Shown here: positions 1 through 29,502 of the stretch, piece after piece
Position numbering within the stretch: position 1 is the stretch's first letter
Layout: every line of letters starts with the position of its first letter
Assembly: GCA_036476995.1 (NCBI GenBank)
Contig: JAZGCO010000012.1
Span: 1 to 33,966, forward strand
Direction of reading: 5' to 3'
Length of the DNA stretch: 33,966 bases
Source: Gemmatimonadota bacterium
GTDB taxonomy: Bacteria > Gemmatimonadota > Gemmatimonadetes > Palauibacterales > Palauibacteraceae
The notes under the pieces: generated by a model
Told to the model about the DNA's origin: nothing
Databases searched by the model: none
What the model saw: the letters and a program-made list of their open reading frames with translations, nothing else
Translations under genes and position numbers: made by a program

Positions 1-204
1 AGGATCTGACGCGCGCCGTTTCCTTCATCCAGGACGAGCACGGTATCGGCGGGAGCGGCGCTGACCGTATCGACCGCGATGTCATACTGGTCCGTCTCGT
101 TCCCCTCCGTGTCGAGCTTGCTCACCAGGAGCAGGCGGCGGCCTTCGAGGTGCTGGATCTTGATCGTCGCGACGACGGATCCGACGACCTTGCCGAGATA
201 CACG
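1..204 (-). CDS. BMC vertex (pentamer) protein, EutN/PduN/CcmL family; 3' end truncated by window edge
   Basis: Reverse-complement of 1..204 translates from GTG at 204 as VYLGKVVGSVVATIKIQHLEGRRLLLVSKLDTEGNETDQYDIAVDTVSAAPADTVLVLDEGNGARQI..., a clear paralog of the two other BMC-P ORFs. It abuts the stop of the 205..477 gene. It is not in the ORF track because it runs off the window. Confidence 0.7.
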
Positions 205-477
205 TCAGGCCGTCCTGTGGACATCGTCCACGATTCCGGTAATCGCCAAATCAACGGGGACGAAGAGCTCGGGCATGGCCTGCGCGGCCTCGCGGCTGGC
301 GACGGTGAAGACCAGGCTCCCGGGCCCGGCCTGAGCGGTGGCGTCGGCCGCGACCTGAGCCGTGCCGCGCGGTGCCAGGTCCCGGTCCAAGGGCTGAACC
401 AAGAGGAGTTTGACCCCCTCGAGCCCCTCGTACTTATGGCTGGCCACCACCGTTCCTATCACGCGCGCGAACTTCAT
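205..477 (-). CDS. BMC vertex protein (BMC-P), EutN/PduN/CcmL family
   Basis: 90 aa MKFARVIGTVVASHKYEGLEGVKLLLVQPLD... has the typical EutN/CcmL fold signature. Its stop is adjacent to the GTG start of the next BMC-P gene. Confidence 0.85.
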   Translation of the reverse strand: MKFARVIGTVVASHKYEGLEGVKLLLVQPLDRDLAPRGTAQVAADATAQAGPGSLVFTVASREAAQAMPELFVPVDLAITGIVDDVHRTA

Positions 478-1115
478 GCGGTTTCCACCGCTTGTGTGCC
501 GGCCACGGCCGGTGCGGACGCCACGGACGGTCTGGCGCCGCCGACACGCTCGCTGAACGGCGTGGCGTCAGAGATATTGTCCCAAATCTCGGGATGCAGC
601 TGCGGGATGATCACCTGGTTCACCAGCAGACCAGGTTCGACCGCACCGCTGCCGCTCTCGACGGCTATCTCCACGTCAGCTACGACGCCTGAATAGAGCA
701 CGATTCCCTTGCCGCCGAGACCGTCTGCGAGACGAATCTCGACGAGTTGCACCAGCGCGCTCTTGATGCCCGCGTCGGCGGCATTGATGGCGGCAGCGGC
801 AGTGTTGGTCTCAACGACGCCCAGCGCGTCGGTAGGGGCGGGGGCGCGGCTACCCACGATGGCCTCCACAACCTCCGGGTGAACACTTGGCAGGAACACA
901 TGCCCGAGTACGCTCGAGCCTCCGATAGTACGCCCGGCGGATAGCGCTTCCTCGACGTCTGCCACCTCTCCGCCGACGAGCACCAGGTACCGGCCGGGCT
1001 GAACCGTTCCGGCCCGAATCGTGCCTACCGGGGCCCGCTTCACCATTGCATCCGCGGCCTGAATGCCGGACGCGATGCTGGAGAAGTCGATCAAGGCCAA
1101 GGCCGGTTCGATCAC
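474..1115 (-). CDS. BMC-T shell protein, tandem canonical BMC domains (PduT-like)
   Basis: 213 aa with two repeats of the BMC (Pfam00936-like) motif: IEPALALIDFSSIASGIQAADAMVKRAPV... and ALGVVETNTAAAAINAADAGIKSALVQLVEI... Confidence 0.8.
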   Translation of the reverse strand: MIEPALALIDFSSIASGIQAADAMVKRAPVGTIRAGTVQPGRYLVLVGGEVADVEEALSAGRTIGGSSVLGHVFLPSVHPEVVEAIVGSRAPAPTDALGVVETNTAAAAINAADAGIKSALVQLVEIRLADGLGGKGIVLYSGVVADVEIAVESGSGAVEPGLLVNQVIIPQLHPEIWDNISDATPFSERVGGARPSVASAPAVAGTQAVETA

Positions 1116-1122
1116 GCGCGCG

Positions 1123-2592
1123 CTAAACGATCCGGAAATAGTCTTTGAGGACGCACCGCCGGATGCGGCTGAAGCTGACCGGACTCGTCACTCCCTCACC
1201 GGTGGGACTGGCGATCGTGAACGAGCAGTAGCCCTCGCCGCCGTAGCCCAGGCCATCGAATGAAGCCCCGTTCTTGACGAAGATGCTGCAGTTCATGACG
1301 CGGGCCATGCGGCTCAGGCTGTCGAGGTTCTTCGAGTGCATCACGGCGGTATGACGGAACCCGTGCTCCGCCACCTTGCTGAGGTCGATTCCTTCGTTTG
1401 CGTCCCGGACACGCACCACGGGGTGGACCGGCATCATCTGCTCAGAGAACACGAGCTGATCGTCCCGTTCGACCTCGGCCACGATAAGCCGCACCTCGTC
1501 TCCCGCCTCGATACCTATCGCGCGCAGGAGCACGTTGGCGTTCTGGCCGATGAACTCGCGGTTCATGGTGCCGTGCCGTCCGCGGGGCGGGACTTCCGTG
1601 AAGATCGATGGCTTGAGGCGTTCAAGCTGAGCGGAATCAATCTCGACCGCGCCGTGCCGGCACATGGCTCGCTTCAGGTCGTCGGCGATAGAAGCGACCG
1701 CAAAGGTCTCCTTCTCATCCGTACAAATGATGTTGTTGTCGAAGGACGCGCCACGTACGATGTCGCGTCCGGCCTGCTCGATGTCAGCCGTCTCATCCAC
1801 TACCACCGGCGGATTTCCTGGCCCGCCGCAGATGGCCCGCTTCCCGCTCGCCATCGCAGCCTTCACAACTCCAGCGCCGCCAGTGACCGTAAGGAGATTG
1901 ATGTCTTTGTGGGTCATGAGTCCGTTGGCCGTGTCGATTGTGGGTTCTGCCACGGCCGAGACCAGGTTGGCCGGGCCACCGGCCTCGATGATCGCGTCGT
2001 TAATGAGCTGCACCGTCTTGTTGGAGCACGTCGTGGCTCCGGGGTGAGCGTTGAATAGGACCGCGTTCCCAGCCGAGACCATGCATATCGTGTTCGACAC
2101 CACGGTAGATATCGGATTGGTGCTGGGGATGATCGAGCCGATGAGTCCGTGCGGCGCGTACTCCACCACAGTGAGGCCCCCGTCTCCGGTCCACGCGGTG
2201 GTGTTGAGGGATTCCGGGCCGGGCGACTTGTCGGCGTTGAGGAGCACCTTCTCGATCTTGTCCTCGAAGCGGCCCATCCCTGTTTCCTGCCACGCCTCGT
2301 ACGCCAGTGGCTGCGCGTTCTCGCGCATTGTGCGTCGGACGTGGGCGATCATGCGCTCGCGCACGGAGAGCGGCAGATCCTGAAGCTGGGCGAACGCTTT
2401 CCGCCCGGCGCTCACCGCGCTGTCCACGTCGGGAAACAGGTTGTCTCCGTGCTTGGGAGACGTTGAAGGAGGCGGTGGGGAAGGGCTGATCACGGGTGTC
2501 GGCCGCGGGCCGTGCGCGCCCGCCTCCGGATGATGGAGCTCGGACATGACCCGGTCGATCACGCCCTCAATCTGCGTGTCGGTGATCATCAT
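1123..2592 (-). CDS. CoA-acylating aldehyde dehydrogenase (EutE/PduP-like) with N-terminal encapsulation peptide
   Basis: 489 aa. The aldehyde dehydrogenase core runs to the C-terminus. The N-terminus [19 protein letters not shown] is a predicted amphipathic helix followed by a Pro-rich linker [19 protein letters not shown] 4-nt overlap with the upstream BMC-P stop suggests translational coupling. Confidence 0.85.
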
Positions 2593-2888
2593 CCAACCCC
2601 GGCCTTGTCGTACGTCACCTCGCCGTCCACCTCGAGCGTGTCCACAATGGCCATGATCACTCCATCACACGGCCGGTTCTGGGTCACCTTGGTTTGACGG
2701 GCCGAACTGCCGGTGGCGTACAGCACCACCTCGCCCAGGCCAGCGCCCACAGCGTCCGCCGCGACCAGGTTGCCTCCGGTCTCATTACCCTCGACATCGA
2801 GCTGCTTGAGCAGCAGAAGTTTCAGCCCTTCCAGGGACGGCTCCTTCTGGGACGCTACGACCGTCCCGACCACCTTTCCTACCAGCAT
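2589..2888 (-). CDS. BMC vertex protein (BMC-P), EutN/CcmL family
   Basis: The track ORF 2589..2972 has an unlikely Arg-rich N-terminus. The internal Met [31 protein letters not shown]... matches the other BMC-P N-termini and has GGGAG about 8 nt upstream. That start gives a 99-aa product. Confidence 0.8.
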
Positions 2889-2904
2889 TGGCGGCTCCCT
2901 TCGG

Positions 2905-3228
2905 CTACTTCTTGGCGGCCTTGGCTCCTTCAGCCGACCGGCTGACCGGAAGCGTGTTCTCGACGTTCGCATGCGGACGCGGAATGACGTGGATCGCCAC
3001 GAGCTCGCCGATCTTCTCAGCGCCCCGAGCGCCCGCGTCCACCGCCGCCTTTACGGCGGCCACATCGCCCCGCACAACGGCCGTGACGTACCCGCCTCCG
3101 GTCTTCTCGTACGCAACGAGCTCGACTCTGGCGGCCTTGACCATCGCGTCGGCCGCCTCGACCATCGCCGCGTAGCTCCGGGTCTCGATCATGCCCAGTG
3201 CTTCAATCGCGCCGTACTCTTCAGCCAT
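2905..3228 (-). CDS. BMC-H hexameric shell protein (PduA/EutM-like)
   Basis: 107 aa [71 protein letters not shown]... is the canonical BMC-H signature. An AGGAGG Shine-Dalgarno sits 6 nt upstream of the ATG, the strongest RBS in the locus. Confidence 0.9.
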
Positions 3229-3319
3229 TGTGTCCTCCTGATGACATGGAATGCGCGGTCCTCCCGCGCCGTGTTCGCTCGATCACCTGCTGCATCTCGT
3301 TGCTCCGCACTAGCCCCAG

Positions 3320-3964
3320 CTAGCGCTTCTTGGCCTCGATTTCTCTACCATCGATGCCCTCAATGGCGGCCACGGCCGCTCCGTAGCCCGCCATGATGTC
3401 CTGTTCTTCACCACCCAGGTACACGCGCCCGAAGCTTCCGAACGCGCGAACCTCCAGGATGTTCAGATTGGATGCTTTCTCAGCCTCATTCGCTGCCAGG
3501 GCGGCATATCCGGCCGGTTCGACTTCCAGTACGTAGAGGGTCTGGCCGGCCAGCAGCATGTGGCCGAAGCGCATCCGGTTCACCAGCTGCACCTGATGCG
3601 GGTCGATGTTGCGAATGATCTGGCTCGAGATCACCCGCGGCTTGAGCCGCTCCGTCTCCTCGACGCCCAGTGCTTGGAGGATGGCCGCTCCGGCCGCCCG
3701 GACCTCGGCCTGAATCTCGTGATGCACCTCCAGGAGACCGAACAGCCGCTCCACGATCTGCATCCCGGGACGCACCCGGGTGGACTTGAGTGCGATGTCC
3801 GTGATCCTGTTGACCTCGATGCCCGGGGAGATCTCGATCCACAGCGACGTGTCGCCGGGCAGCGGCAGGAACCCGCGGGCCACCGTGCCGAGGTAAGCCG
3901 CGTGCTGCGGCTGAAGGCTGTCGAGAAAGGCATATGTGCGAAGGTCAATCTGCTTCTGCGTCAT
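3320..3964 (-). CDS. BMC-T shell protein, tandem permuted double-stacking type (CcmP/CsoS1D-like)
   Basis: 214 aa. The N-terminus [55 protein letters not shown]... matches, from memory, the cyanobacterial CcmP sequence (..LRSYVYLDNLQRQHASYIGT...[16 protein letters not shown]...). Its start overlaps the DeoC stop. Confidence 0.75.
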
Positions 3965-4833
3965 GTCTTGGCTCCCTGAACGATCTTCACGCTGGCGCTG
4001 GCGCCGATCCGGCTGGCTCCAGCGGCGATCATCTTCTCTGCATCGGCGAGAGTGCGAATACCTCCGGACGCCTTTACGCCCAGATTCGGCCCGACGACCC
4101 GTCTCATCAGCGCCACGTCCTCTGCGGTCGCTCCCCCCGGCCCGAACCCGGTGGACGTCTTCACGAAGTCACCTCCCGCAACCTTCACGAGCTGGCAGGC
4201 TGCGACTTTCTCCTCGTCGGTAAGCAGCGCGGCCTCGATAATCACCTTGAGAATCGAGCCCCCGGCATGGGCGGCGCGGGCCACCGAGGCGATATCCCGC
4301 TCGACCAGCTCATAGTCCCGGGATTTGAGGGCCCCGACATTGATCACCATATCGACCTCGGTGGCGCCGTCCCGAATCGCCTTCTGGGCCTCGAATACCT
4401 TGGTTTCCGTGGAGGTGGCGCCCAACGGGAAACCGACCACGGTGCACACGCGAACCGGCGAGTCTTTGAGGAGGTCCGAGCAGAGCTTCACGTGCGATGG
4501 ATTGACGCACACCGAGGCGAACTCACATTTCCGGGCCTCGTAGCAGAGCTGCGCGACCTGGTCCTGAGTCGCGTCCGGCTTCAGAAGCGTGTGGTCGATC
4601 AACGGGGCGAGGCTGCCATCGGTCGGAGCCACGCCTAGAGTGGCGGCGATTCGGTCCGCACCGGCCCGAACGACCGGCTGGACACGGTCCACATAGTTCT
4701 GGGCCGAGAGGGCAGGGGCGCGGCCGGGCTGGCCCTGGCTCGGGAGCGTGCCCCCCCGCACGAGGACCAGGACCTCGTGCGTGATCTGCTCAATGATCCG
4801 CTCCAGCGCGGCGTTATCCAGGCTCATGTTCAT
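3961..4833 (-). CDS. deoC: Deoxyribose-phosphate aldolase (DeoC/DERA family) with N-terminal encapsulation-peptide-like extension
   Basis: 290 aa. The DERA core runs from ...[20 protein letters not shown]... with the class I aldolase Lys region. An extra N-terminal helix [25 protein letters not shown] precedes a Gly/Pro linker. Confidence 0.85.
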
Positions 4834-4849
4834 CGTTTGAGGAGCCGGT

Positions 4850-5680
4850 TCATGGTCTCAGAAACCTCTGCTCGATATCCATGATCTTGTTCACGCGGCG
4901 CTCGTGTCTGCCGCCGCCGGCCGGGGTCTCGAGCCATGTCCGGACGATCTGCCGTCCGAGCTGCGGACCGATGAGTCCGGCCCCGAGCGTAAGCACGTTG
5001 GCGTCGTTGTGTTCGCGGCTGTTGACGGCCGTGGCCTCGTCATAGCACATGGCGGCCCTGACCCCGGGAACCTTATTGGCCGCCATGCAGGAGCCGATGC
5101 CGGCGCCATCTACCAAAATGCCGCGCCAGGCGCGGCCCTGAGCTACGAGCTGCGCCGCGGCGAAAGCGAAATCAGGGTAGTCGACGGAGTCGGAACTGTC
5201 GGTGCCGCAATCGATCACCGAGTAGCCAAGCTCCCGGACGTGAGATTTGAGCATCTCCTTCAGCTCGTACCCTCCGTGGTCGGCTCCCAGCGCCACCACT
5301 TTCGCTCCCGTGGCCGCGGGTTTCGGCCCTGAATCGGCGGTGGTCAGCACGGTGGACTGCCGGGCCGGAACAGCGCTCTCTTCGACGACCGAAATCCCTC
5401 TGTTGGCCGCCGCTTCCCGCGCCAGCGGCGAAACGAGCGAACCCGGCGGGATCTCGAGCGTGCCGCCCGCCGGAATGCCCGCCACGTCGGTTTCGGTCAC
5501 CAGTCCCCGCTCTGACCGTCGCTTGGGCCCGCCGCCCGCCGGCCGTGTCCGAATCTGGCCGTACCCCGCCGATCCCGAGACGCCGACCGTGCGCAGCACT
5601 ACGCGCCGCACCATGTCCCTGATTCTCGCTTCCTCCGCCGGTGCCAGGACTCGAGCCTCGCTCATTACCAGGCCCGCCAT
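4850..5680 (-). CDS. Ribose-5-phosphate isomerase B / LacAB-family sugar-phosphate isomerase fused to a ~130-aa N-terminal extension
   Basis: The C-terminal ~150 aa [34 protein letters not shown]...[29 protein letters not shown]...[10 protein letters not shown] is RpiB-family. The N-terminal part begins with a predicted amphipathic helix ([24 protein letters not shown]) and contains a conserved-looking block [40 protein letters not shown]. An alternative start, ATG at 5665, overlaps the TetR stop as TAATG. Confidence 0.8.
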
Positions 5681-6363
5681 TCAAACTGGTCCTCAGCATC
5701 AGCGCCGTTCTCCTCGGCTGTCTGCGGTTCGCCAACCATGACATCGTGGGATGCGCCCGATTTGTAGTGGCTGCGTGCCGCCAAGAGCTCGATGGACGAT
5801 CGCAGCTGGGCCACGGAGGCGTCGAAGGGCTCGAGGGACTCGGCCGCTCGCGCCTGCATGATTCCGCCCTGCGCCACCGCCAGGACGTGATGCGCCAGAG
5901 CCGCCCGGTCCAGGCTGGCCGGAAGACGGTCACCAGCCGCCACCAACCAGGCTAGGACCTGTGCTACCCAGATAGAGAAATACTCCTCGATCAGCTTGCG
6001 CACGCGTGGCATTTGGCCCCCGACCTCCAGCGCCAGGTTGCCGACCGGGCATCCTTGTGTCGAGCCTGAAATCAGCAGCCCGCGGCGATATACCCCGAGC
6101 AACGAGAACACGTGCTCGAGCGGATCGTCCGTCACGCTGTCCGCGACGGCACGCTCGATGATCATCGGCCGCAGCCTATCCAGATGTCGCTGCATTACCG
6201 CCGCCAGAAGATCTTCCTTGCTCGAGAAGAAGTGATACAGACTGCCGCTCTTTACGCCCGCAGTGCGCAGTATTGTCGCCACGCCGGTAGCGTGGTAGCC
6301 GCGCTCCTCGAACACCTGAGCCGCTACCTCTAGAATCCGTTCCTTCGTGTGCTTGGCCATCAT
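5665..6363 (-). CDS. TetR/AcrR-family transcriptional regulator, first gene of the BMC operon
   Basis: The N-terminal helix-turn-helix MAKHTKERILEVAAQVFEERGYHATGVATILRTAGVKSGSLYHFF is the classic TetR_N motif. The track start at 6381 is a TTG inside an upstream palindrome, so the ATG at 6363 (MMAKH) is preferred. Its stop overlaps the RpiB-fusion start. Confidence 0.85.
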   Translation of the reverse strand: MMAKHTKERILEVAAQVFEERGYHATGVATILRTAGVKSGSLYHFFSSKEDLLAAVMQRHLDRLRPMIIERAVADSVTDDPLEHVFSLLGVYRRGLLISGSTQGCPVGNLALEVGGQMPRVRKLIEEYFSIWVAQVLAWLVAAGDRLPASLDRAALAHHVLAVAQGGIMQARAAESLEPFDASVAQLRSSIELLAARSHYKSGASHDVMVGEPQTAEENGADAEDQFEWRAW

Positions 6364-13241: not shown

Positions 13242-13914
13242 CCTTTCCGAACTCATCCTGAGCGGAGAAGGCGGGCTCGAGACGGCTTCCCTCTCACTGG
13301 GGGCCTTTCAATCCAACTGCCACCTCGTGCGGCAGCCCGGATCCACTGAGGCCGTGGTCATCGACCCAGGCGCCGAGCCGGACCGCGTGCTGGAGGCGTT
13401 GAGCCGATGGGGAGCGGTTCCCGCCGCGATCCTCCTCACGCACGCTCACCTGGATCACATCGGAGGCGTCGCGGGTGTCTTGGACCGCTATCCGGTTCCG
13501 GTGTATCTACACGACGAAGACCGGCCGTTGTACGACAATGCCGCTCAGCAGGCGCTGATGTTCGGCCTGGAGATGCAGCAACCGCCGCTGCCCGAGCACT
13601 CCCTGGCGCACGGCCAGGAGCTGAATCTTGCGGGCGTCCGGCTGGAGGTGCGTTTCACACCCGGGCACTCGCCGGGACACGTCGTGTTCGTGGGTCCAGG
13701 ATTGGCGTTCGTGGGAGACTGCGTGTTCGCCGGTTCGATCGGCCGCACGGATCTTCCTGGCGGAAACGCCCTCACGCTATTGACCTCGATCCGCGACCAG
13801 ATCCTGAGTCTTTCACCCGAAACGAAACTTCTGACGGGCCACGGACCGGCCACGACGGTGGCTGTCGAGGCGGCCAGTAACCCGTTCCTGCGGGACACGT
13901 CGTGGGCGACCTGA
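13198..13914 (+). CDS. MBL-fold metallo-hydrolase (glyoxalase II / hydroxyacylglutathione hydrolase-like)
   Basis: Contains THAHLDHIGG (the HxHxDH motif), plus downstream His and Asp ligands (..FTPGHSPGH.., ..GDCVFAGSIGRTD..). The first canonical start overlaps the IscA gene by 44 nt, so the true start is uncertain. Confidence 0.75.
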   Translation: MPREPAAAAPPFRSSLSELILSGEGGLETASLSLGAFQSNCHLVRQPGSTEAVVIDPGAEPDRVLEALSRWGAVPAAILLTHAHLDHIGGVAGVLDRYPVPVYLHDEDRPLYDNAAQQALMFGLEMQQPPLPEHSLAHGQELNLAGVRLEVRFTPGHSPGHVVFVGPGLAFVGDCVFAGSIGRTDLPGGNALTLLTSIRDQILSLSPETKLLTGHGPATTVAVEAASNPFLRDTSWAT

Positions 13915-15032
13915 GCCGAGACCAGGCAGAGGACGCGCAGACGGATGCACAGATCGACGCACCGGCCGAGCCCGGCCCGCAGAACCCGCGGCGGCCCACG
14001 GCGGAACAGACCGCGCGTCTGTCTGAACTGCTGCGCGCCGTCGAGGGGACGGACCGCGTGTACGTGCTCACACACGACAACCCCGACCCCGACGGGATCG
14101 CCTCTTCCGCCGCTCTGGCCTACCTCCTCGAGCACGTGGCCGGCAAGCAGACTTCTGTGCTGTTCGGTGGCATCGTAGGCCGGGCCGAGAACCGGGCTCT
14201 GATGGATGAGCTCGGGATCGAGTTCAGCCGGATGGAAACGACCGAACTGGAGCCCTCCGCGCTGGTGGCCCTGGTGGATACACAGCCTAGAAGCGGCAAC
14301 AACTCGCTTCCCGAGGGCCGGATCGCCACGATCGTGATCGACCACCATCCTGAGACGCCGGCCAGCCGGGCGGCCGCCTTCGTGGATATTCGGCCCGAGT
14401 ACGGCGCCTGCTGCTCGATGATGACGGAGTACCTTCGTATCGCGAAGCTCGAGCCGGACCGCCGCCTGGCCACCGCCCTGTTCTACGGGATCCAGACCGA
14501 GACTATGGATTTGGGCCGAGAGGTCTCAGAGGCGGATGTCAGCAGCAGCCTGTTCCTGTACCCGCGCTCCGACCCGGCGGCTACATCGCGAATCCGTCAC
14601 CCCAGCCTTCCGCTGGCACTGTTCCATGCGATTCACTATGGACTCGAGCACGGGTGGCGCCGGGAAGGGGTGGTCTGCATCCCGTTGGGCCGCCTCGCCT
14701 ACCCCGATCTCGGAGCTCAGCTGGCGGACCTGTTCGTGCGCGGCGTTGGCGTGACCTGGTCGGTAGTGGCGGGACGATACGGCGACCAGTTGTTGCTGTC
14801 TCTGCGAACGTTCGAGCCGACGGCGCACGCGGGAGAGTTGGTCCGCGAGGTGGTGGGCGAACGAGGTTCGGCCGGTGGGCACGGAACGATGGCCGGCGCT
14901 AGCCTGGACGTCCGCACGCTTTCGGAGGCCGAGTACGACACCCTGCTGGAATCGCTATTCGACGACCTTTGCACTGTTCTGGGTGCAGAGTCATCAGACA
15001 GCATCCCGCTCATTGGCAAGGACGAAGGATGA
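13902..15032 (+). CDS. DHH/DHHA1-family phosphoesterase (NrnA-like nanoRNase / pAp phosphatase)
   Basis: DHH motifs ..VLTHDNPDPDGIASS.. and ..IVIDHHPE.., and a DHHA1 region ..GGGHGTMAGAS... The GTG start overlaps the MBL gene. Confidence 0.8.
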   Translation: MGDLSRDQAEDAQTDAQIDAPAEPGPQNPRRPTAEQTARLSELLRAVEGTDRVYVLTHDNPDPDGIASSAALAYLLEHVAGKQTSVLFGGIVGRAENRALMDELGIEFSRMETTELEPSALVALVDTQPRSGNNSLPEGRIATIVIDHHPETPASRAAAFVDIRPEYGACCSMMTEYLRIAKLEPDRRLATALFYGIQTETMDLGREVSEADVSSSLFLYPRSDPAATSRIRHPSLPLALFHAIHYGLEHGWRREGVVCIPLGRLAYPDLGAQLADLFVRGVGVTWSVVAGRYGDQLLLSLRTFEPTAHAGELVREVVGERGSAGGHGTMAGASLDVRTLSEAEYDTLLESLFDDLCTVLGAESSDSIPLIGKDEG

Positions 15033-18025: not shown

Positions 18026-18160
18026 ATGACAGATTTCGCGTTGGGATTCATGCTGGTCAGTATTCTCAGCGTCACAGTGCTGGTCGTGTATTGCTATTAC
18101 CGAATTCTCAAACCGGGTTCGTCCGACACCGAAACGGAGAATGCCGATCCAGGAGCCTGA
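18026..18160 (+). CDS. 44-aa single-pass membrane micro-protein downstream of the NSS transporter (candidate small transporter subunit)
   Basis: AGGAGGAG lies 7 nt upstream of the ATG. The product is MTDFALGFMLVSILSVTVLVVYCYYRILKPGSSDTETENADPGA, one hydrophobic helix plus a charged tail. It overlaps the next gene's start by ~20 nt. Coordinates are +/-1 because my reading near 18000 is off by one relative to the ORF track. Confidence 0.45.
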   Translation: MTDFALGFMLVSILSVTVLVVYCYYRILKPGSSDTETENADPGA

Positions 18161-19145
18161 TCTCCGCCGGCAGGAAGGACTACACCGAATTCGGCTGGAG
18201 CTTCTCGCCAGCCGACATGTTGTTCTCACCACGCATCTGAACGCGGACGGCGACGGCGCCGGAAGCGAGGCAGCGGTCGCGCACTATCTGCGCCGCAACG
18301 GCATCGCTTCTACCATCATCAACCCGACTCCCTTCCCGGAGAGTTTCCGGTTTCTTCTGGGGAAGACCGAGGCCTGGACGCCGGCAGACGATGAAGGTCG
18401 GAGCGCCCTCGGTGACGCCGACAAGGTGCTCATCTTGGACACGGCGGAGCCGGCCAGGATTGGCGCCGTGATGGGGCACCTGGAGGGCAAGCACCTCCTC
18501 GTCCTCGACCACCATCCTCCTGTCGGCCCCGACTTCGGTGATCCTGCGGTGCGCGACGCGCGGGCCTGCGCGACGGGAGAACTCGTCTACGATCTCATAA
18601 CCGCCGATGGCGGTGGCGTGACCGAGCAGGAGGCGGCGGGGATCTACGTGGCGATCGTCACGGACACTGGATCGTTCCGCTTCTCCAACACATCCCCCCG
18701 GGCGCTCGAGATCTGCGCCGAGCTGCTCCGGCAGGGCGTAGACCCGGAGGACATGTTCAGACGCCTGTTTGGCCAGGGAAGCCGGGCGGGACTGGCGATC
18801 CTCCAGCGGGCACTGGCCTCTCTCCAGGTGGACGCGGAGCATCCGATCGCCTGGATTCGTTTGACCCACCAGGATCTCGTCGAGTCCGGCGCCAGTTCCG
18901 AAGACCTAGAGGGTATAGTGGACATTCCGCGGCAACTGGCGGGCATCGAGGTAGCCGTGTTCCTCAGAGAGCTGCCGGACGGAAAGACCAAGGCCTCCCT
19001 GCGCTCGAACGGACAGGTCAGCGTCGCCGCCGTGGCCCGGGACCTGGGCGGGGGCGGGCACGAAAAAGCGGCCGGCGTTCTTCTCTCCTGCGGCCTGGAC
19101 GAGGCCGAGCAGCAGGTGTTGGCTCTCCTGAGAGCCGCTCTTTGA
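18141..19145 (+). CDS. Second DHH/DHHA1-family phosphoesterase (NrnA-like)
   Basis: ..LTTHLNADGDGAGSEAA.., ..LVLDHHPP.. and a DHHA1 region ..GGGGHEKAAG... Confidence 0.8.
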   Translation: MPIQEPDLRRQEGLHRIRLELLASRHVVLTTHLNADGDGAGSEAAVAHYLRRNGIASTIINPTPFPESFRFLLGKTEAWTPADDEGRSALGDADKVLILDTAEPARIGAVMGHLEGKHLLVLDHHPPVGPDFGDPAVRDARACATGELVYDLITADGGGVTEQEAAGIYVAIVTDTGSFRFSNTSPRALEICAELLRQGVDPEDMFRRLFGQGSRAGLAILQRALASLQVDAEHPIAWIRLTHQDLVESGASSEDLEGIVDIPRQLAGIEVAVFLRELPDGKTKASLRSNGQVSVAAVARDLGGGGHEKAAGVLLSCGLDEAEQQVLALLRAAL

Positions 19146-23204: not shown

Positions 23205-25025
23205 CTAGTAGCCCAGAGCTTTGCCATCGCGCCGCCGGTCCGCCGCTCCCACCAGGGTTCCATCCGGCCGCACATGAATCGTCATCACGTCACCGGAGAT
23301 GCCGTCCCGTTCCCGCACGTTATGTCCGCGGGACCTGAGCGCCCGGACGACATCGTCGGATAATCCCCCCCGCTCGTACCGGATCAGGTCCGGTAGGTTC
23401 TGGTGGTGGAAGCGCGGACTGTCCACGGACTCAGTCGGCGACAGCCTGAAATCGATGTGGTTGGTTACGATCTGAAACACGGTGCTGATGATAGTGCCGC
23501 CGCCGGGGGTGCCGGTTATCAGCTCGGTACGCCCGTCCGGCGCAATGACGATCGTCGGCGTCATCGCCGACAACATTCTCTTGCCCGGTTCAATCGCGTT
23601 CGCGGAGCCCTGAACGAGCCCGTAGACGTTCGGAACTCCGGGCTTCGCGGTGAAGTCGTCCATCTCGTTGTTAAGCAGGAAGCCAGCGCCACGGACAACT
23701 ACCTTCGATCCGTAGCCGCCGTTGAGGGTGGTCGTGACTGCGATAGCGTTGCCGGCCGAATCTACCACCGAGAAATGGGTAGTCTGAGTAGACTCGAGCG
23801 GCACCTTGTTGAACTCCTCCGACAGGGAGGCGTGCCCGGGATCAATCGTGTTCCGGAGCGAATCCGCGTACGCCTGCGACAGTAGTAGATCGATTGGAAC
23901 CTCTACGAAGTCGGTATCTCCCAGGTAGTAGTTCCGATCGGCATAGGCGCGCCTCATGGCTTCGACGGCGAGGTGGATCGCTTCCGCGGAGTGCCACTCG
24001 TGAGACCCGAGGTCGAACCCTTCCACGATGTTCAGCAGTTCACCGAGCGTGATCCCGCCGGAGGACGAGGGCGGCATGGAGATGACCTGGTAGCCCCGGT
24101 AGTCCACCTCCACGGGATTTCGCCATACCGGTTGATAATCGGCCAGGTCTTCGTGGCTGATGAGTCCGCCGCCCCGCTTCATCTCCGCCACGAGTGAATC
24201 CGCGATCCAGCCTGTGTAGAATCCGGCCGGACCGTTCTCGGCGATGGCTCTGAGCGAGCGGGCAAGGTCCGGCTGCCGCAGCGTATCGCCCACCTGCGGC
24301 GCAGATCCGTTGGGCAGGAAGACGGCGGCCGTAGAGGGGAAACGGCGCAGCCTGGTCTCATAACTGGCCAGGGAACGAGCATGCTGTCCCGCGATCTCGA
24401 AGCCACGTGCCAGTCGAATGGCCGGATCCAGCAAGTCAGCCCAGGGAAGCGTGCCGTGACGCTCCCAGGCCGCGTACATGCCGGCCACCGACCCTGGAAC
24501 GCCGGCGGCGCGGTGTCCGACTAGACTGGCCTCGGTGACCTTCCCGTCTTCGTCGAGATACATATCACGGGAAGCCCCACCGGGGGCCTTCTCCCGGAAG
24601 TCCAGCGCGAAACGCGTATCGTCGGCAAGGCGGGCCAACCAGAACCCACCGCCGCCTATGTTGCCGGCGGAAGGCTGAACCACGGCCAGCGCGAACTGGA
24701 CCACGATCGCAGCGTCTACGGCGTTGCCGCCGGCCTTGAGAGTGGCCAGGCCCGCCGCGCTGGCCAGAGAATCTGTGGACACCACCATACCGCGGCGGCC
24801 CAGGGCAGGCGCTCGGCCGGCCGGGTAGCGCCAAGTCGCGGGAAAGGAGACGCCGGCTTGGCCGACTGCGGCGGCCGGATCGAGGGCCGCAGGACCCATT
24901 CCGGCTCCCGCGCCGCAGGCCCAGGCGAACAGGGCGGCGAGGGCGAAAATAGCTCCGCGATGACCCGATCCAGACCGCACCTGCACCCCGTGATTCACAC
25001 GCTGTCGATGCCTCAGAGCCGTCAT
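23205..25025 (-). CDS. ggt: Gamma-glutamyltranspeptidase (GGT), secreted
   Basis: 606 aa with a signal peptide and an AWA|C cleavage-type site. Motifs ..AGNIGGGGFWL.. and catalytic Thr TTHFSVVD. A C-terminal small-subunit GG motif ..GTPGGGTII.. is present. The start may be a downstream GTG (see rejected/notes). Confidence 0.85.
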   Translation of the reverse strand: MTALRHRQRVNHGVQVRSGSGHRGAIFALAALFAWACGAGAGMGPAALDPAAAVGQAGVSFPATWRYPAGRAPALGRRGMVVSTDSLASAAGLATLKAGGNAVDAAIVVQFALAVVQPSAGNIGGGGFWLARLADDTRFALDFREKAPGGASRDMYLDEDGKVTEASLVGHRAAGVPGSVAGMYAAWERHGTLPWADLLDPAIRLARGFEIAGQHARSLASYETRLRRFPSTAAVFLPNGSAPQVGDTLRQPDLARSLRAIAENGPAGFYTGWIADSLVAEMKRGGGLISHEDLADYQPVWRNPVEVDYRGYQVISMPPSSSGGITLGELLNIVEGFDLGSHEWHSAEAIHLAVEAMRRAYADRNYYLGDTDFVEVPIDLLLSQAYADSLRNTIDPGHASLSEEFNKVPLESTQTTHFSVVDSAGNAIAVTTTLNGGYGSKVVVRGAGFLLNNEMDDFTAKPGVPNVYGLVQGSANAIEPGKRMLSAMTPTIVIAPDGRTELITGTPGGGTIISTVFQIVTNHIDFRLSPTESVDSPRFHHQNLPDLIRYERGGLSDDVVRALRSRGHNVRERDGISGDVMTIHVRPDGTLVGAADRRRDGKALGY

Positions 25026-25042: not shown

Positions 25043-26236
25043 GTGGAGCCTACGAGAGTCATCCGGCGTCAAGCTAGGAGCGGCCTAATCGCGCAGCAAA
25101 CCGCGGAGCTGTATGCCGGAATCATGTCCGGCACGTCGCATGACGGAATCGATGTGGCACTGGTGGCCCTGAGGGGCGCCGACGAGCGGCCCGACGCTGC
25201 TGAACTGGTCAGCTTCACCTTCACACCCTATGAGGACGGACTGCGGCGGCGGCTGCGATCCCTGGCGGAGAACGAGGCCGGCGTACCCGAGCTGTGCGCC
25301 GTCAACTTCGAACTGGGGGCCGTCTTCGCCGAAGCCTTGACCAAGGCTCTCGCCGTTGCCGGGGTATCACCCGGCGACATGGTGGCCGCCGGATGCCACG
25401 GCCACACGGTCTGGCACGTCCCGCCCGCTTCCGGAGCCGGCGGAGGATCGACGCTGCAGGTGGGTGAAGCAGCGGTCATTGCTGAGCGGACGGGCCTTGC
25501 CGTCGTGGCGGACTTCCGGGTGCGCGATGTAGCAGCGGGCGGGCACGGGGCGCCTCTCGCCCCGTACTTCGACCACCTGCTCTTCCGCTCCGCAGGCGCG
25601 GGACGGGCGATTCAGAACATCGGCGGCATCGCCAACGTGACGGGCCTCCCGGCTGACCCGAGCGCGCGGCCGATGGCTTTCGACACGGGACCGGGGATGG
25701 CCCTCATCGACGCCGCGGTCGAGATCCTTACCGGCGGAGAGGCCACGTTCGACGCTGGCGGAGAGCTGGCGGCTCGGGGAGCGGTACTCGAAGCCGCCGT
25801 GAGCGAGTGGCTGTCCGACCCGTTCTTCGCGCAGCGTCCCCCGCGCAGTACCGGGCGCGAGCGGTTCGGCTCCGGGCGGGCGCGCGCCTGGCTCGAAGCG
25901 AATGCGGACCATGCGTCCGAGGATCTGGTGGCAACTCTGACCGAAGTTACGGCCCGTTCCGTGGCTCAAAGCTACGAGTGGCTAGAATTCGGTGTGGACG
26001 AGGTGTTCGTCTGCGGCGGCGGGGCACACAACCGCCATCTCATGGCGCGTCTCGGGAGCCTTCTGCCCGTTACGCGGGTCAGCGTGCTCGATGACTTGGG
26101 CTGGCCAGTGGACTGCCGGGAGGCCGCGGCCTTCGCGCTACTGGCCCGCCAACACGTCCTCGGCATCCCGGTGGATCTTGGCTGGGCCACCGGCGCCCCG
26201 GCGCCGAGGCTTCTGGGGAAGATGGTTCCGGCGTGA
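25043..26236 (+). CDS. anmK: Anhydro-N-acetylmuramic acid kinase (AnmK)
   Basis: N-terminal signature GIMSGTSHDGIDVALV (family consensus G.MSGTS.DG.D). The start is uncertain between GTG 25043 and ATG 25124. Confidence 0.8.
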   Translation: MEPTRVIRRQARSGLIAQQTAELYAGIMSGTSHDGIDVALVALRGADERPDAAELVSFTFTPYEDGLRRRLRSLAENEAGVPELCAVNFELGAVFAEALTKALAVAGVSPGDMVAAGCHGHTVWHVPPASGAGGGSTLQVGEAAVIAERTGLAVVADFRVRDVAAGGHGAPLAPYFDHLLFRSAGAGRAIQNIGGIANVTGLPADPSARPMAFDTGPGMALIDAAVEILTGGEATFDAGGELAARGAVLEAAVSEWLSDPFFAQRPPRSTGRERFGSGRARAWLEANADHASEDLVATLTEVTARSVAQSYEWLEFGVDEVFVCGGGAHNRHLMARLGSLLPVTRVSVLDDLGWPVDCREAAAFALLARQHVLGIPVDLGWATGAPAPRLLGKMVPA

Positions 26237-27729
26237 TCGGGCCCGATTTACTGGAGCCAGGCCTGGTGTTCCTCCAAGCGCTGCGCTTCGACCAGGGTTC
26301 GCTCGCCTCGGTTCGTGACCGGGCGTTCGAGGCGCTGGAACAGAGCGTGGGCGGCTTCGTCCTGTTTGGCGGGGAAGCGGAATCGGTGGCCAGTCTGACT
26401 GAAGACCTGAGCACTGAAGCTGGCCGGGCGCTGTGGTTCGCTGCGGACCTCGAACGGGGCGCAGGGCAGCAGTTCGCGGGACTCCCGACGCTCCCGCCTC
26501 CCGCTGCCCTGGCGCGGCATCAGGCGCCCGACAACGCGGTGCGTATCGCAGCCGGCCTGACGGCGCGGGATGCCCGCTCCGTAGGGATCAACTGGGCGCT
26601 GGCGCCGGTGCTGGATCTGGACGTGGAGCCAGCCAACCCGATCGTGGGTACCCGCTCCTTCGGCTCCGACCCGGAGCTGGTGGCGCGGCTGGGCGCTGTG
26701 TGGATCGAAGCGTGCCAGGCCAGCGGGGTCGCTGCCTGCGCCAAGCATTTTCCGGGACACGGCCGTACGACGGGAGACTCGCACTCCGAGCTGCCCAGCG
26801 TAGACTCAGCCCGCGAAGACCTGGAGGCGGACTTGACTCCGTTCCGGGCCGTGATCCGGGACGTGGCCTCGGTCATGACCGCTCACGTGGCCTACCCGGC
26901 CCTCGGGTCGTCCGGCCCTGCCACCCTGTCTCCGGCCATCCTCCGGACACTGCTCCGCTCGGAGATGGGATTCGACGGTCTGGTTGTCTCCGACGCCATG
27001 AACATGGCGGGTTTCTCAGGTTCTTCCCCGGCCTCCGCCCTGCTGGCCGGCTGCGATCTTCTGCTCTATCCGACCGATCTGGCGATCGCCGTCCGGGGCC
27101 TGCAGGAGGCCGTCCGGAGATCGGAGCCGCTGGCCCGCCGGCTGCAGGAGGCCACCGCCCGCTCCGCCCGGCAGCTGGCGCGATTCTCGGGTCCCGGGCT
27201 CGCCTCAGCCGGAGGGCCGCAGGCGGATACCTCCTCCGCCGACCTGGACAGTCTAGCGGCGGAGTGCGTGACCCAGGTGGGAGCGCCGGTGGAGCAGATC
27301 CTCGACCCCACGCTGCCTCTGGACGTCTGCGGCGTCTGGGATGACCGAGAGGAACCGGGCCGGCCGGCCTGGGGCGCCGCCTTCAGGGCCGAGCTGGCCG
27401 CCGCCGGGTGGAAGATCCGCGAGCCCAAGTCCGACGCCGAGTCCGCGGCCCGGCCCGAGGCTTACGGCAATACCCAGCGGATCGTGCTGATCGCGGCCAC
27501 GCCGCAGGCCTGGAAGGGCCGCCCGGGACTGTCGGAAGAGGCGGCTGCCGAGGTCGGGCGCCTGCTTGCCACCGGAAACTCCGGCAAGGCGTATCCCATC
27601 ATGTTCGGGCACATCAGAACTCTCGAGAGTCTAGGTATGCCCGGTGCGTCGGCAGCCTGCGCCTGGAGCGCTGAGATCGGCGCAGAGCGCTCCGCCGCGC
27701 GCTGGCTCAACCTACGGGTTCGGGGTTAG
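26233..27729 (+). CDS. nagZ: Beta-N-acetylhexosaminidase NagZ (glycoside hydrolase family 3) with C-terminal extension
   Basis: GH3 motifs ..GINWALAPVLDLD.., ..KHFPGHGRTTGDSH.. and ..VVSDAMNM... A GTGA overlap with the anmK stop. Confidence 0.85.
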   Translation: MIGPDLLEPGLVFLQALRFDQGSLASVRDRAFEALEQSVGGFVLFGGEAESVASLTEDLSTEAGRALWFAADLERGAGQQFAGLPTLPPPAALARHQAPDNAVRIAAGLTARDARSVGINWALAPVLDLDVEPANPIVGTRSFGSDPELVARLGAVWIEACQASGVAACAKHFPGHGRTTGDSHSELPSVDSAREDLEADLTPFRAVIRDVASVMTAHVAYPALGSSGPATLSPAILRTLLRSEMGFDGLVVSDAMNMAGFSGSSPASALLAGCDLLLYPTDLAIAVRGLQEAVRRSEPLARRLQEATARSARQLARFSGPGLASAGGPQADTSSADLDSLAAECVTQVGAPVEQILDPTLPLDVCGVWDDREEPGRPAWGAAFRAELAAAGWKIREPKSDAESAARPEAYGNTQRIVLIAATPQAWKGRPGLSEEAAAEVGRLLATGNSGKAYPIMFGHIRTLESLGMPGASAACAWSAEIGAERSAARWLNLRVRG

Positions 27730-27732
27730 TAA

Positions 27733-29502
27733 GTGCGCTCGATCGATTGGTGGATCGTAGCGTGCTATCTGGCCGGTACCCTGGCGGTCGGGATATGGCT
27801 GGCACGTCGGGCCAGCGGCAGCCTGGAGGACTTCTTCGTCAGCGGTCGCTCTCTACCGTGGTGGCTGGCCGGCACCTCCATGGCGGCGACGACCTTCAGC
27901 GTGGATACGCCACTATACGTGACCGGTCTGGTCGCCCGCCGCGGAATCGCCGGCAACTGGGAGTGGTGGTCCTTCGCACTGTCTCATCTCCTGCTCATCT
28001 ATCTCTTCGCCCGCCTGTGGAGGCGGGCCCGGATCGTGACCGATGCCGAGCTGACCGAAATACGCTACTCGGGCCGGCCTGCGGCGATACTTCGTGGATC
28101 ACGGGCCTTCCTGTTCGCGATCCCGATCAACTGCATCGCTATCGGCTACGTCATGCTGGCCATGCGCAAGGTGGTGGAGGCTCTGGGGCTGTTCGACGGC
28201 CTCTCCGGCTGGCTGCCCGGCGACGAGCGGTTCTGGATTGTTGTCGCCATGTCGATTTTCGTTCTCGTCTACGCCGGCCTGTCAGGTCTCTGGGGCGTAG
28301 TGGCAACCGACTTCTTTCAGTTCGTGCTGGCCATGGCCGGGGCGCTGCTGGTGGCGGGTTTTGCTCTGGCCGACATCGGCGGGATCGCGGAACTCAAGAA
28401 CATGCTGGCCGAGGCCGGCCGCAGCGACGCCCTGCGAATAGTGCCCAGGCCGGGTTCACTGGACCTCCCGATGGGGACGTTTCTGGCCTATCTCGGCATC
28501 CAGTGGTGGGCCTTCCGGCGCTCAGACGGCGGCGGCGAATTCGTGCAGCGTATGTCGGCCTGCAAGACCGAGAAGGACGCCGAGTGGGCCGCCTGGCTGT
28601 TCAACTTGCTGCACTATGTGCTTCGGGCGTGGCCGTGGCTCCTCGCGGCGCTCATCGCGCTGGCCGTCTTTCCGAACCTGGAAGACCCCGAGCAGGGGTA
28701 TCCGCTCCTCATGATCAAGTACCTGCCGACCGGTGCTCTGGGGCTTGCTGTGGCCGGTTTCTTCGCGGCCTTCATGTCCACTGTATCGACGCAGATCAAC
28801 TGGGGCGCGAGCTACGTCGTCAACGACATCTATGCCCGCTTTGTGAAGCCCGACGCCTCGCAAGCGCGGCTCGTGGCCGTCGGCCGGCTGGCGTCCGTCG
28901 TCATCGTGGCGCTGGCCGCGGTCGCGGCGTTCTTCGCCAACGACATCGGAACGGTGTTCCGTTTCATGATCGCCATCGGCACGGGGCCTGGAGCCGTACT
29001 GATACTCCGCTGGTTCTGGTGGCGCGTGAACGCCTGGGCTGAGCTTTCCGCGATGCTGGCAGGTTTCGTGATCGCGCTCCTCACCTATCTTCCCGAGCTG
29101 GAGGCCATCGGGCTTCCGCAGCTGGCCAACATGGGATTCGGTCTCCGGCTAGCTATCACGGCGGGAGGTTCTACCGCGGTGTGGCTGCCGGTGATGCTGC
29201 TCACGAAACCGGAGTCCGACGAAACGCTGGACTCGTTCTACGCCAGGGTTCGGCCGGCCGGTAGCGGGTGGGCTCGTCAGCGGTCTCGAGTGGGACTTGA
29301 ACCGGACAGCCCGCTGCGAAGAGATCTGCTCCGGACGCTGTGGGCAGCGTTCGTACTGTTCGGCTGCATGTTCGGGCTGGGCGGCGTTGTGCTCCTGGAG
29401 TGGAGGATGGCCGCCTTCTCACTGGTAGCAGCGGCTTTGGGCCTGACGGGACTGATGCGCTCCCGGCGTAACGTGACGGTTACCGAGGTGGGGACGACTT
29501 GA
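27733..29502 (+). CDS. Sodium:solute symporter (SSS family) transporter embedded in the peptidoglycan-recycling cluster
   Basis: 589 aa with ~13-14 TM helices. SSS N-terminal pattern ..DFFVSGRSLPWWLAGTSMAATTFSVDTPL... GTG start. Confidence 0.85.
   Translation: MRSIDWWIVACYLAGTLAVGIWLARRASGSLEDFFVSGRSLPWWLAGTSMAATTFSVDTPLYVTGLVARRGIAGNWEWWSFALSHLLLIYLFARLWRRARIVTDAELTEIRYSGRPAAILRGSRAFLFAIPINCIAIGYVMLAMRKVVEALGLFDGLSGWLPGDERFWIVVAMSIFVLVYAGLSGLWGVVATDFFQFVLAMAGALLVAGFALADIGGIAELKNMLAEAGRSDALRIVPRPGSLDLPMGTFLAYLGIQWWAFRRSDGGGEFVQRMSACKTEKDAEWAAWLFNLLHYVLRAWPWLLAALIALAVFPNLEDPEQGYPLLMIKYLPTGALGLAVAGFFAAFMSTVSTQINWGASYVVNDIYARFVKPDASQARLVAVGRLASVVIVALAAVAAFFANDIGTVFRFMIAIGTGPGAVLILRWFWWRVNAWAELSAMLAGFVIALLTYLPELEAIGLPQLANMGFGLRLAITAGGSTAVWLPVMLLTKPESDETLDSFYARVRPAGSGWARQRSRVGLEPDSPLRRDLLRTLWAAFVLFGCMFGLGGVVLLEWRMAAFSLVAAALGLTGLMRSRRNVTVTEVGTT

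Follow-up and report, generated by a model that had tools for sequence, protein, structure and literature searches.

Predicted encapsulation peptides on the three enzymes of a minimal sugar-phosphate-utilization metabolosome operon in a Gemmatimonadota genome

Introduction

Sugar-phosphate-utilization (SPU) metabolosomes and the encapsulation peptides (EPs) on their enzymes have been described in a series of studies of bacterial microcompartments (BMCs) (Axen 2014; Sutter 2021, PMC8217296; Dwyer, Sutter & Kerfeld, Commun Biol 2024, PMC11585597). In the most recent of these, all SPU deoxyribose-phosphate aldolases (DERAs) have an N-terminal amphipathic helix that is absent from DERAs outside BMCs, the RpiB-like protein (RPI) has a typical N-terminal EP followed by a spacer, and the aldehyde dehydrogenases (AldDHs) have N-terminal EPs except in subtype SPU6, where the peptide is C-terminal (PMC11585597). 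Deletion of EP residues has been followed in related systems: EutE lacking residues 2–21 was no longer targeted and remained cytosolic in Salmonella (PMC12487888), and EP-deleted DERA and AldDH were not recruited to SPU-type shells of Hodarchaeales (2025 preprint, PMC12747264). Here we analyse an operon that encodes DERA, RPI and an acylating AldDH in a 33,966-nucleotide stretch of DNA from a Gemmatimonadota bacterium (contig JAZGCO010000012.1, positions 1 to 33,966; hereafter the window). We propose that the N-terminal helix and linker extensions of the three enzymes are EPs of a minimal SPU metabolosome, a reading to which we assign a probability of about 0.85. EP tags on these enzyme families appeared in print in 2024 (PMC11585597); the finding is real but already known, and the locus adds one more, minimal member to the SPU type.

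By its gene content the operon is assigned to the SPU metabolosomes: genes for DERA (PF01791) and an acylating AldDH (PF00171) accompany those for BMC-H, BMC-T and no fewer than three BMC-P proteins. The likeness to published SPU systems includes the RpiB-like RPI and three BMC-P genes, the N-terminal amphipathic helix of DERA, the EP and long spacer of RPI, the N-terminal position of the AldDH EP, an Asp in place of the RPI catalytic residue Cys66, and a CcmP-like BMC-Tdp. The closest named relatives of the window's proteins are from Gemmatimonadota metagenome-assembled genomes (MAGs). The operon differs from described SPU loci in being minimal, with no phosphotransacylase (PTAC), PduS homologue, triose-phosphate isomerase (TPI) or alcohol dehydrogenase either among its genes or in the remaining 28 kb of the window. 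The last operon gene, which encodes the third BMC-P and is cut by the window edge, is complete in the same contig of a public MAG assembly (L005, contig JAZHCF012126039.1; comparison loci are given L numbers); there it encodes 90 amino acids and ends the operon, with a converging gene beyond, so that DERA, RPI and AldDH make up its full set of enzymes. PduS homologues are described for every SPU subtype but SPU6, and the window has none, yet the EP of its AldDH lies at the N terminus. The locus may be SPU2/3-like, as the CcmP-like BMC-Tdp suggests, although the missing PduS does not agree with this. Two further differences are a folded module in the RPI spacer that is not described in PMC11585597, and a Gly/Pro-rich DERA linker where many SPU DERAs have a four-cysteine motif.

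Results

N-terminal helix and linker extensions

A first-pass annotation of the window, made without database searches, had claimed that all three enzymes begin with an amphipathic helix followed by a Pro/Gly-rich linker, and the N termini that it quoted were found exactly, on the minus strand, at the positions it gave (Table 1). The Pro+Gly fraction is 0.35–0.44 in the three linkers against 0.12–0.17 elsewhere in each protein; in the first RPI linker it is 0.35, with an amino acid identity to orthologues of 0.41–0.55 and a ratio of nonsynonymous to synonymous substitution rates (dN/dS) of 0.35. All three helices contain a Φ-xx-ΦΦ-xx-ΦΦ pattern of hydrophobic (Φ) positions, as in IEGVIDRVM in AldDH and IRDMVRRVV in RPI. 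Among the 31 non-overlapping open reading frames (ORFs) of at least 100 amino acids in the window, the pattern lies in the first 25 residues of three, exactly the three enzymes. Amphipathicity was measured as the hydrophobic moment against shuffles of the first 30 residues (Fauchère–Pliska scale, max-window statistic), and gave P = 0.005–0.035 for AldDH and P = 0.02–0.04 for DERA, whose helix ranks first by hydrophobic moment in the whole protein. The proposed periodicity was thus borne out for AldDH and DERA, which have the amphipathic helix of about 15–20 residues found in EPs, and was marginal for RPI, where it is significant in an 11-residue core only.

AlphaFold2 (AF2) models, built for RPI and DERA with 32-sequence alignments, predict a helix in both extensions. 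V19, V22, V23 and G28 of RPI are invariant among 32 homologues, and the DERA helix motif is kept across phyla. The AldDH helix aligns with the EutE-type PRK15398 model, from model position 2 onward, and with the N terminus of E. coli EutE (DIEQVVKAVLLKM), and hence with a validated EP. Like the EPs of EutE, EutC, PduP and PduD in Salmonella and E. coli, the window helices are short, N-terminal and built of alternating hydrophobic and polar pairs, with a poorly conserved linker behind them; they differ in being predicted EPs, and in belonging to a system with a sugar-phosphate aldolase as its signature enzyme. One part of the first-pass description needed amending: helix and linker do not directly precede the catalytic core in RPI, where a folded module (residues 53–96) and a second linker intervene.

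Translation and conservation of the extensions

Codon-level evidence indicates that the N-terminal extensions are translated and under purifying selection. The GC content at third codon positions (GC3) is 0.78–0.84 in the extensions against 0.80–0.81 in the cores, and that at second positions (GC2) is the lowest. Measured against two orthologous loci, L002 and L003 (74–96% and 59–83% protein identity, respectively), dN/dS is 0.07–0.30 in the helices, with abundant synonymous change, 0.35–0.81 in the linkers and 0.04–0.11 in the cores. By dN/dS and by the predicted local distance difference test (pLDDT), the linkers are fast-evolving and disordered, in contrast to the conserved helices. The start codons are closely coupled to the genes upstream: the RPI ATG (at 5665) shares nucleotides with the TetR stop (TAATG), as does the AldDH ATG with a BMC-P stop (ATGA), and the DERA ATG lies 16 nt past the RPI stop.

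Were the extensions artefacts of choosing the longest ORF, the real starts would lie downstream of the helices, as the first-pass annotation had itself cautioned. In-frame GTG or ATG codons are present at AldDH codons 11, 16, 34 and 56, DERA codons 25, 48 and 68, and RPI codons 18, 19, 23, 56 and 123, and one public annotation, that of L002, starts DERA late. However, the selection on the helices, the codon-position GC typical of coding sequence, the overlaps of the RPI and AldDH starts with upstream stops and the conservation of the helices across phyla all speak otherwise, and automated annotation is known often to miss SPU enzyme extensions (PMC11585597). We therefore regard mis-called starts as ruled out for any practical purpose. 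In L002 (10865–11123) the annotated DERA begins 78 codons late and misses the whole EP extension; the missed stretch is 96–100% identical to the window protein. An in-frame ATG upstream of RPI (5665–5680, minus strand) would add the residues MAGLV, and many homologues are annotated from MAGLVM. The TetR gene, at its 3′ end, runs through the same nucleotides in a different frame, so that TetR may account for their conservation; the RPI helix is intact with either start codon.

The extensions are absent from canonical homologues. All 38 distinct DERA sequences in the PDB align from residue 67 of the window DERA or later, all 22 PDB RpiB sequences align from RPI residue 112 or later, and the PDB chains of BMC-type AldDHs align from AldDH residues 37–51; the corresponding Pfam and NCBIfam models cover DERA from residue 75 and RPI from residue 123. 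Between linker and core, DERA has a pre-core helix with 0.85–1.00 amino acid identity to orthologues and dN/dS ≤0.04, which is also present in some DERAs that have no EP helix (tblastn matches starting at residues 45–54).

DERA loci and shell genes

To compare genomic contexts, one genome per GTDB species was taken, which yielded 80 DERA loci with flanks of up to 10 kb. The window's shell proteins served as queries, and the open frame upstream of each DERA core was inspected for an EP-like helix with a regular expression. An EP-like helix and a shell gene within 10 kb were found together at 51 loci, from Gemmatimonadota, Chloroflexota, Acidobacteriota, Verrucomicrobiota, Bacteroidota and other phyla; these are 51 of the 57 assessable loci with an EP-bearing DERA. 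At seven Bacillales-type loci, DERA begins with its core, and there is neither extension nor shell gene. The regular expression found no N-terminal helix at five loci with shell genes, of which L042 has a short upstream open frame; L060, L061, L069 and L073, with very long upstream frames, look like fusions, perhaps the published RPI–DERA chimeras. An alignment of homologues had been suggested as a check; the helices proved conserved across phyla, and the linkers diverge between orthologues. Together, the three extensions are predicted to be EPs on the grounds that they are translated, absent from canonical DERA and RpiB and other homologues outside BMCs, followed by flexible and poorly conserved linkers, conserved across phyla and found mostly beside shell genes.

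In many SPU-type DERA extensions, the stretch that separates the EP helix from the pre-core helix has a four-cysteine motif (for example, CNCSDGSCVAHC or CKFNCTDGLCVRTC). Of the EP-bearing DERAs less than 70% identical to the window protein, 24 of 38 have this motif, against only 1 of 28 in the clade of at least 70% identity, in which a Gly/Pro linker replaces it; at window positions 4705–4755 it is absent. The survey loci listed for the motif, in their DERA upstream regions, are L032–L037, L039–L066 and L071–L079. The motif might bind a metal or an Fe–S cluster.

A folded module and an altered active site in RPI

Between the two disordered linkers of RPI lies the folded module, in which (42 aa) G67, G75, P80, L81, A82, A86 and R89 are invariant among 32 homologues. 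Most RPI relatives have one copy, one has two, and 405-aa Anaerolineales proteins have three; SPU6-like RPIs have none, with only a helix and a Pro/Ala spacer. RPI residues 53–96 correspond to the C-terminal 40 residues of PduM, the C terminus of TIGR02536 and EutQ residues 2–46. Homologues with two or three copies match PF15953 (PduM) positions 111–153 with 27.7 and 32.7 bits (cut-off 27), and the single window copy scores 18.1 bits, below that cut-off. The NCBIfam PduM and TIGR02536 models match the multi-copy proteins at E = 6e-9, below the equivalog cut-offs, and the EutQ N terminus also matches. A profile of 28 modules aligned to E. coli EutQ 2–46 with hhalign E = 4.6e-4 and a probability of 33%. 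Unlike in EutQ and PduM, the module shares its chain with an EP helix and an RpiB domain in the window protein, and relatives have up to three repeats of it; the statistical support for the likeness is weak for a single copy, and any function assigned to the module is putative.

When 1.84 billion representative proteins were searched exhaustively with the module by HMMER, 385 hits reached E ≤ 1e-3; a word-indexed search of 5.8 billion proteins, in which 81 candidates were scored and 2 were hits, was uninformative. In spot checks the module was N-terminal on class II aldolases and EutQ-type cupins and C-terminal on PTAC and a flavoprotein, and it also occurs on ACT-domain proteins. It is appended to the N or C terminus of at least six families (RpiB, PTAC, class II aldolase, EutQ cupin, flavoprotein and PduM-like). 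A module-bearing class II aldolase stands at the edge of the SPU locus L087, adjoining TIM. Salmonella EutQ residues 9–41 bind the shell and residues 1–99 are sufficient for targeting (PMC12487888), and EutM binding needs the EutQ N terminus (PMC4827028). The EutQ structure 2PYT covers residues 100–229, and the N terminus of EutQ and PduM are without a solved structure (PMC12487888). We tentatively suggest that the module could be a second, mobile BMC-association device besides EPs, homologous to EutQ H1/H2 and the PduM C terminus, with RPI as an SPU adaptor, although the odds are somewhat against it. In the literature searched, none of the papers in which EutQ and PduM both appear connects them through such a module. 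At the Acidobacteriota loci L071, L078 and L084, the RPI next to DERA lacks the EP helix, and the EutQ-like module stands at its very N terminus.

The first-pass annotation had counted RPI as an isomerase. Asp186 (5108–5110, minus strand) stands at the position of E. coli RpiB catalytic Cys66, where a PDB RpiB chain with VICGTG aligns with LVDGAG of the window protein, and is invariant among 32 homologues. RPI has Ala at E. coli RpiB Thr68, and Ser192 at the position of Glu75, which we take to be the catalytic base of M. tuberculosis-type RpiB. Neither of the two alternative catalytic bases, Cys66 or Glu75, is thus retained. The equivalents of His99/Asn100, Arg133/137 and Asp9/His10 are conserved, with numbering beyond Cys66 and His99 assigned by reading the alignment; as these putative phosphate- and sugar-binding residues are retained, RPI activity on another substrate is possible. 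In all SPU RPIs Asp replaces Cys66, and an SPU6 homologue had negligible ribose-5-phosphate (R5P) isomerase activity and formed a stable DERA–RPI complex (PMC11585597). Because of Asp186, that negligible activity and that complex, RPI more probably serves DERA as a packaging or adaptor partner than isomerizes ribose-5-phosphate. The Cys-to-Asp change is published for SPU RPIs; Cys193, likewise invariant among the 32 homologues, goes without discussion in the text consulted.

Weighing the alternatives

Several observations weigh against reading the extensions as EPs. The per-protein chance of the hydrophobic pattern is 0.047 and, because the motif was defined after the sequences had been seen, this figure is only indicative. 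For RPI, amphipathicity reached P = 0.05 for the 11-residue core and P = 0.38 at 14 or 18 residues, and an earlier whole-helix moment (Eisenberg scale, 100°) gave P = 0.05 for AldDH, 0.09 for DERA and 0.44 for RPI; the case for the RPI helix therefore rests mainly on its conservation. The DERA helix was modelled with low AF2 confidence (pLDDT 48–62). The association of EP-like helices with shell genes within 10 kb (51/6/5/9, Fisher P = 8e-5) comes from phylogenetically non-independent loci. Finally, six loci with complete flanks have an EP-like helix by regular expression and no shell gene within 10 kb. Manual review left five to seven of this kind (L062, L066, L071, L078, L079 and possibly L067 and L074), with L068 rejected as a false positive, and inspection of the ORFs at L062, L066, L071 and L078 revealed unrelated neighbours. 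Orthologues that keep the helix outside BMC loci had been named beforehand as grounds for doubting the EP assignment; this is borne out in part, at these few loci, and 51 of the 57 EP-bearing loci lie beside shell genes.

The shell-less loci leave room for a role of the DERA extension that is independent of BMCs, such as oligomerization, regulation or metal binding, with its presence in BMC loci a coincidence, and the four-cysteine motif of many DERA extensions would suit such a role. We consider this improbable: most EP-bearing loci have shell genes, canonical DERAs are without the extension, deletion of the EP stops DERA recruitment in the related SPU-type system (PMC12747264), and satellite loci with EP-bearing aldolases are documented in genomes with BMCs of the Haliangium ochraceum (HO) type (PMC8217296). 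The shell-less loci may be such satellites. It is also conceivable, if rather unlikely, that the helices are mainly self-association or aggregation elements that nucleate an enzyme core and not direct shell-binding signals. The N-terminal extension renders full-length SPU6 DERA insoluble (PMC11585597), Pdu signal sequences mediate aggregation and direct proteins to the core, not the shell (PMC12108088), and the EutC EP binds the H3/H4 region of EutQ and not the shell (PMC12487888). On the other hand, contacts of PduP-type EPs with a PduA helix have been reported; the two modes look alike in sequence, and both count as encapsulation. For RPI the question is a different one, as it may be a shell–cargo adaptor like EutQ, PduM and CcmM, and not enzyme cargo, a possibility that we hold a little less probable than its opposite and that is compatible with its helix being an EP. 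The EP helix would then join the cargo core, the module would bind shell proteins and the altered RpiB domain would hold DERA. The folded and conserved module, its matches to the PduM, TIGR02536 and EutQ models, the shell binding and targeting by the EutQ N terminus, its varying copy number (0 to 3), its occurrence on PTAC, class II aldolase, EutQ cupin and flavoprotein, and the Asp at Cys66, with the inactivity and DERA complex of the SPU6 homologue, all fit an adaptor; the score of the single window copy (18 against a Pfam cut-off of 27 bits), the hhalign probability of 33%, the SPU6-like RPIs that work without the module and the conserved phosphate- and sugar-binding residues of RpiB do not.

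Shell permeability and proposed pathway

The first-pass annotation had further argued that encapsulating an aldolase and an isomerase means that the sugar phosphate itself must cross the shell, and had called such permeability unusual. The argument stands for DERA, with deoxyribose-5-phosphate (Dr5P) going in and glyceraldehyde-3-phosphate coming out, and loses the support of the isomerase: with RPI lacking the catalytic Cys and its homologue nearly inactive, DERA carries it by itself. Passage of a phosphorylated C5 sugar has a precedent in carboxysomes, whose shells pass ribulose-1,5-bisphosphate (RuBP) and 3-phosphoglycerate (3-PGA). The window BMC-Tdp resembles the carboxysomal CcmP structure 4HT5 (E = 2e-90, about 70% identity by eye), with the ER gate motif (IVERLFG) aligned. 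Entry of Dr5P through the pores of SPU BMC-H and BMC-Tdp has already been proposed (Sutter 2021, PMC8217296; Dwyer 2024, PMC11585597). Given the RuBP precedent, the CcmP-like BMC-Tdp and this proposal, such a permeability requirement is not unusual. The window BMC-H resembles the H. ochraceum BMC-H 5DJB (HO-5815; E = 3e-39, about 80% identity by eye), and its pore loop EKTGGGY is identical to that of the H. ochraceum hexamer. The systems differ in cargo: carboxysomes hold Rubisco, and the HO shell is without known cargo. Hodarchaeales SPU-type microcompartments (PMC12747264) share EPs on DERA and AldDH, with recruitment lost on EP deletion, and differ in an archaeal DERA fused to a flavoprotein domain, shells without BMC-Tdp and additional enzymes.

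We propose the following pathway for this SPU operon. The hydrophobic faces of the helices would drive the enzymes into a cargo core, onto the lumenal side of the shell, or both, and RPI would bring two candidate association devices, its EP helix and the EutQ-N/PduM-C-like module. The shell would be built from HO-like BMC-H, PduT-like BMC-Ts, CcmP-like gated BMC-Tdp and three BMC-P proteins. 2-Deoxyribose-5-phosphate could enter through the BMC-H or BMC-Tdp pores and would be split by DERA into glyceraldehyde-3-phosphate and acetaldehyde, and the trapped acetaldehyde would be converted into acetyl-CoA by the EutE-like AldDH. With no PTAC, PduS or alcohol dehydrogenase in the operon, acetyl-CoA, CoA and NAD(H) would need to cross the shell, most plausibly through BMC-Tdp; SPU loci without PTAC typically encode BMC-Tdp, a possible exit for acetyl-CoA (PMC8217296, PMC11585597).

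The locus independently confirms the published EP pattern in an uncharacterized Gemmatimonadota genome, and its compact ten-gene operon with an HO-like shell could serve as a minimal SPU model. Of wider interest are the side results, namely, the RPI module on several BMC-linked enzymes, the four-cysteine motif and the EP-bearing DERA genes far from shell genes, none of which was found in the literature searched.

Operon organization and neighbouring genes

The tightly packed operon (window 1–6363, minus strand) comprises the three enzyme genes and seven shell or regulator genes. From 6363 leftward, their order is TetR, RPI, DERA, BMC-Tdp, BMC-H, BMC-P, AldDH, BMC-Ts, BMC-P and BMC-P, and the arrangement of TetR and RPI at the operon head recurs in L002, L003 and L005.

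Table 1 Features of the SPU operon and proteins carrying the RPI module; coordinates are window positions unless a locus is named
Feature	Coordinates	Strand	Basis or remark
TetR-family regulator, operon head	5665..6363	-	PF00440 and PF21993 matches
RpiB-like protein (RPI)	5665 (or 5680)..4850	-	
RPI, predicted EP helix, residues 9–26 (numbered from the ATG at 5665)	5588..5641	-	AF2 helix; dN/dS 0.18–0.20
RPI linker 1, Gly-rich, disordered, residues 27–52	5510..5587	-	pLDDT <50 at 31–51
RPI folded module, residues 53–96	5378..5509	-	pLDDT 78–95, small strand/helix unit; dN/dS 0.12–0.25
RPI linker 2, disordered, residues 97–122	5300..5377	-	pLDDT <50 at 99–115; identity 0.32–0.35
RPI RpiB-like core, residues 123–271	4850..5299	-	PF02502 at 129–266 (276-aa form); NCBIfam RpiB at 123–266
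Deoxyribose-phosphate aldolase (DERA)	4833..3961	-	
DERA, predicted EP helix, residues 7–26	4756..4815	-	AF2 helix; dN/dS 0.07–0.30
DERA Gly/Pro-rich linker, residues 27–43	4705..4755	-	pLDDT <50 at 24–40; Pro+Gly 0.44; dN/dS 0.40–0.81
DERA pre-core helix, residues 44–74	4612..4704	-	AF2 helix at 44–65
DERA catalytic TIM-barrel core, residues 75–290	3961..4611	-	TIGR00126 deoC at 75–286, 280 bits
BMC-Tdp, CcmP-like gated shell trimer	3320..3964	-	NF053796 CcmP, 365 bits (cut-off 340)
BMC-H hexamer	2905..3228	-	PF00936 match
BMC-P pentamer 1	2589..2888	-	PF03319 match; 99-aa gene in L005
Acylating AldDH, EutE/PduP type	2592..1123	-	
AldDH, predicted EP helix, residues 4–20	2533..2583	-	dN/dS 0.30
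AldDH Pro-rich linker, residues 21–54	2431..2532	-	Pro+Gly 0.41; dN/dS 0.43
AldDH catalytic core	1123..2430	-	PF00171 at 55–443; NF011927 (PRK15398), 614 bits
BMC-Ts, PduT-like tandem BMC	474..1115	-	PF00936 twice; TIGR02526 PduT below cut-off
BMC-P pentamer 2	205..477	-	PF03319 match
BMC-P pentamer 3, GTG start at 203, cut by window edge	1..203	-	Sequence reading
Further module carriers: P0005, P0032, P0245, P0251, P0310, P0360, P0388; also one in L087	L087 8001–8828		

Related SPU operons add a small gene, either one for a 4HBT-family thioesterase that immediately follows the last BMC-P or one for a GNAT acetyltransferase between BMC-Ts and BMC-P (L003/L004 15843–16271; L087 5376–5945); the window operon has neither. 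The thioesterase could bear on CoA recycling where SPU loci lack PTAC. Two genes for DHH-family phosphoesterases (NrnA/RecJ-like) lie less than 15 kb from the operon, at 13902–15032 and 18141–19145 (both plus strand), and it would be a mere guess to tie them to an operon thought to consume DNA breakdown products. Farther along the window, a peptidoglycan-recycling-like cluster (25043–31433, plus strand) encodes an AnmK kinase, a GH3 (NagZ-like) hydrolase, a sodium:solute symporter and an Amidase_3 protein, and beside it lies a gene for a gamma-glutamyltranspeptidase (23205–25025, minus strand).

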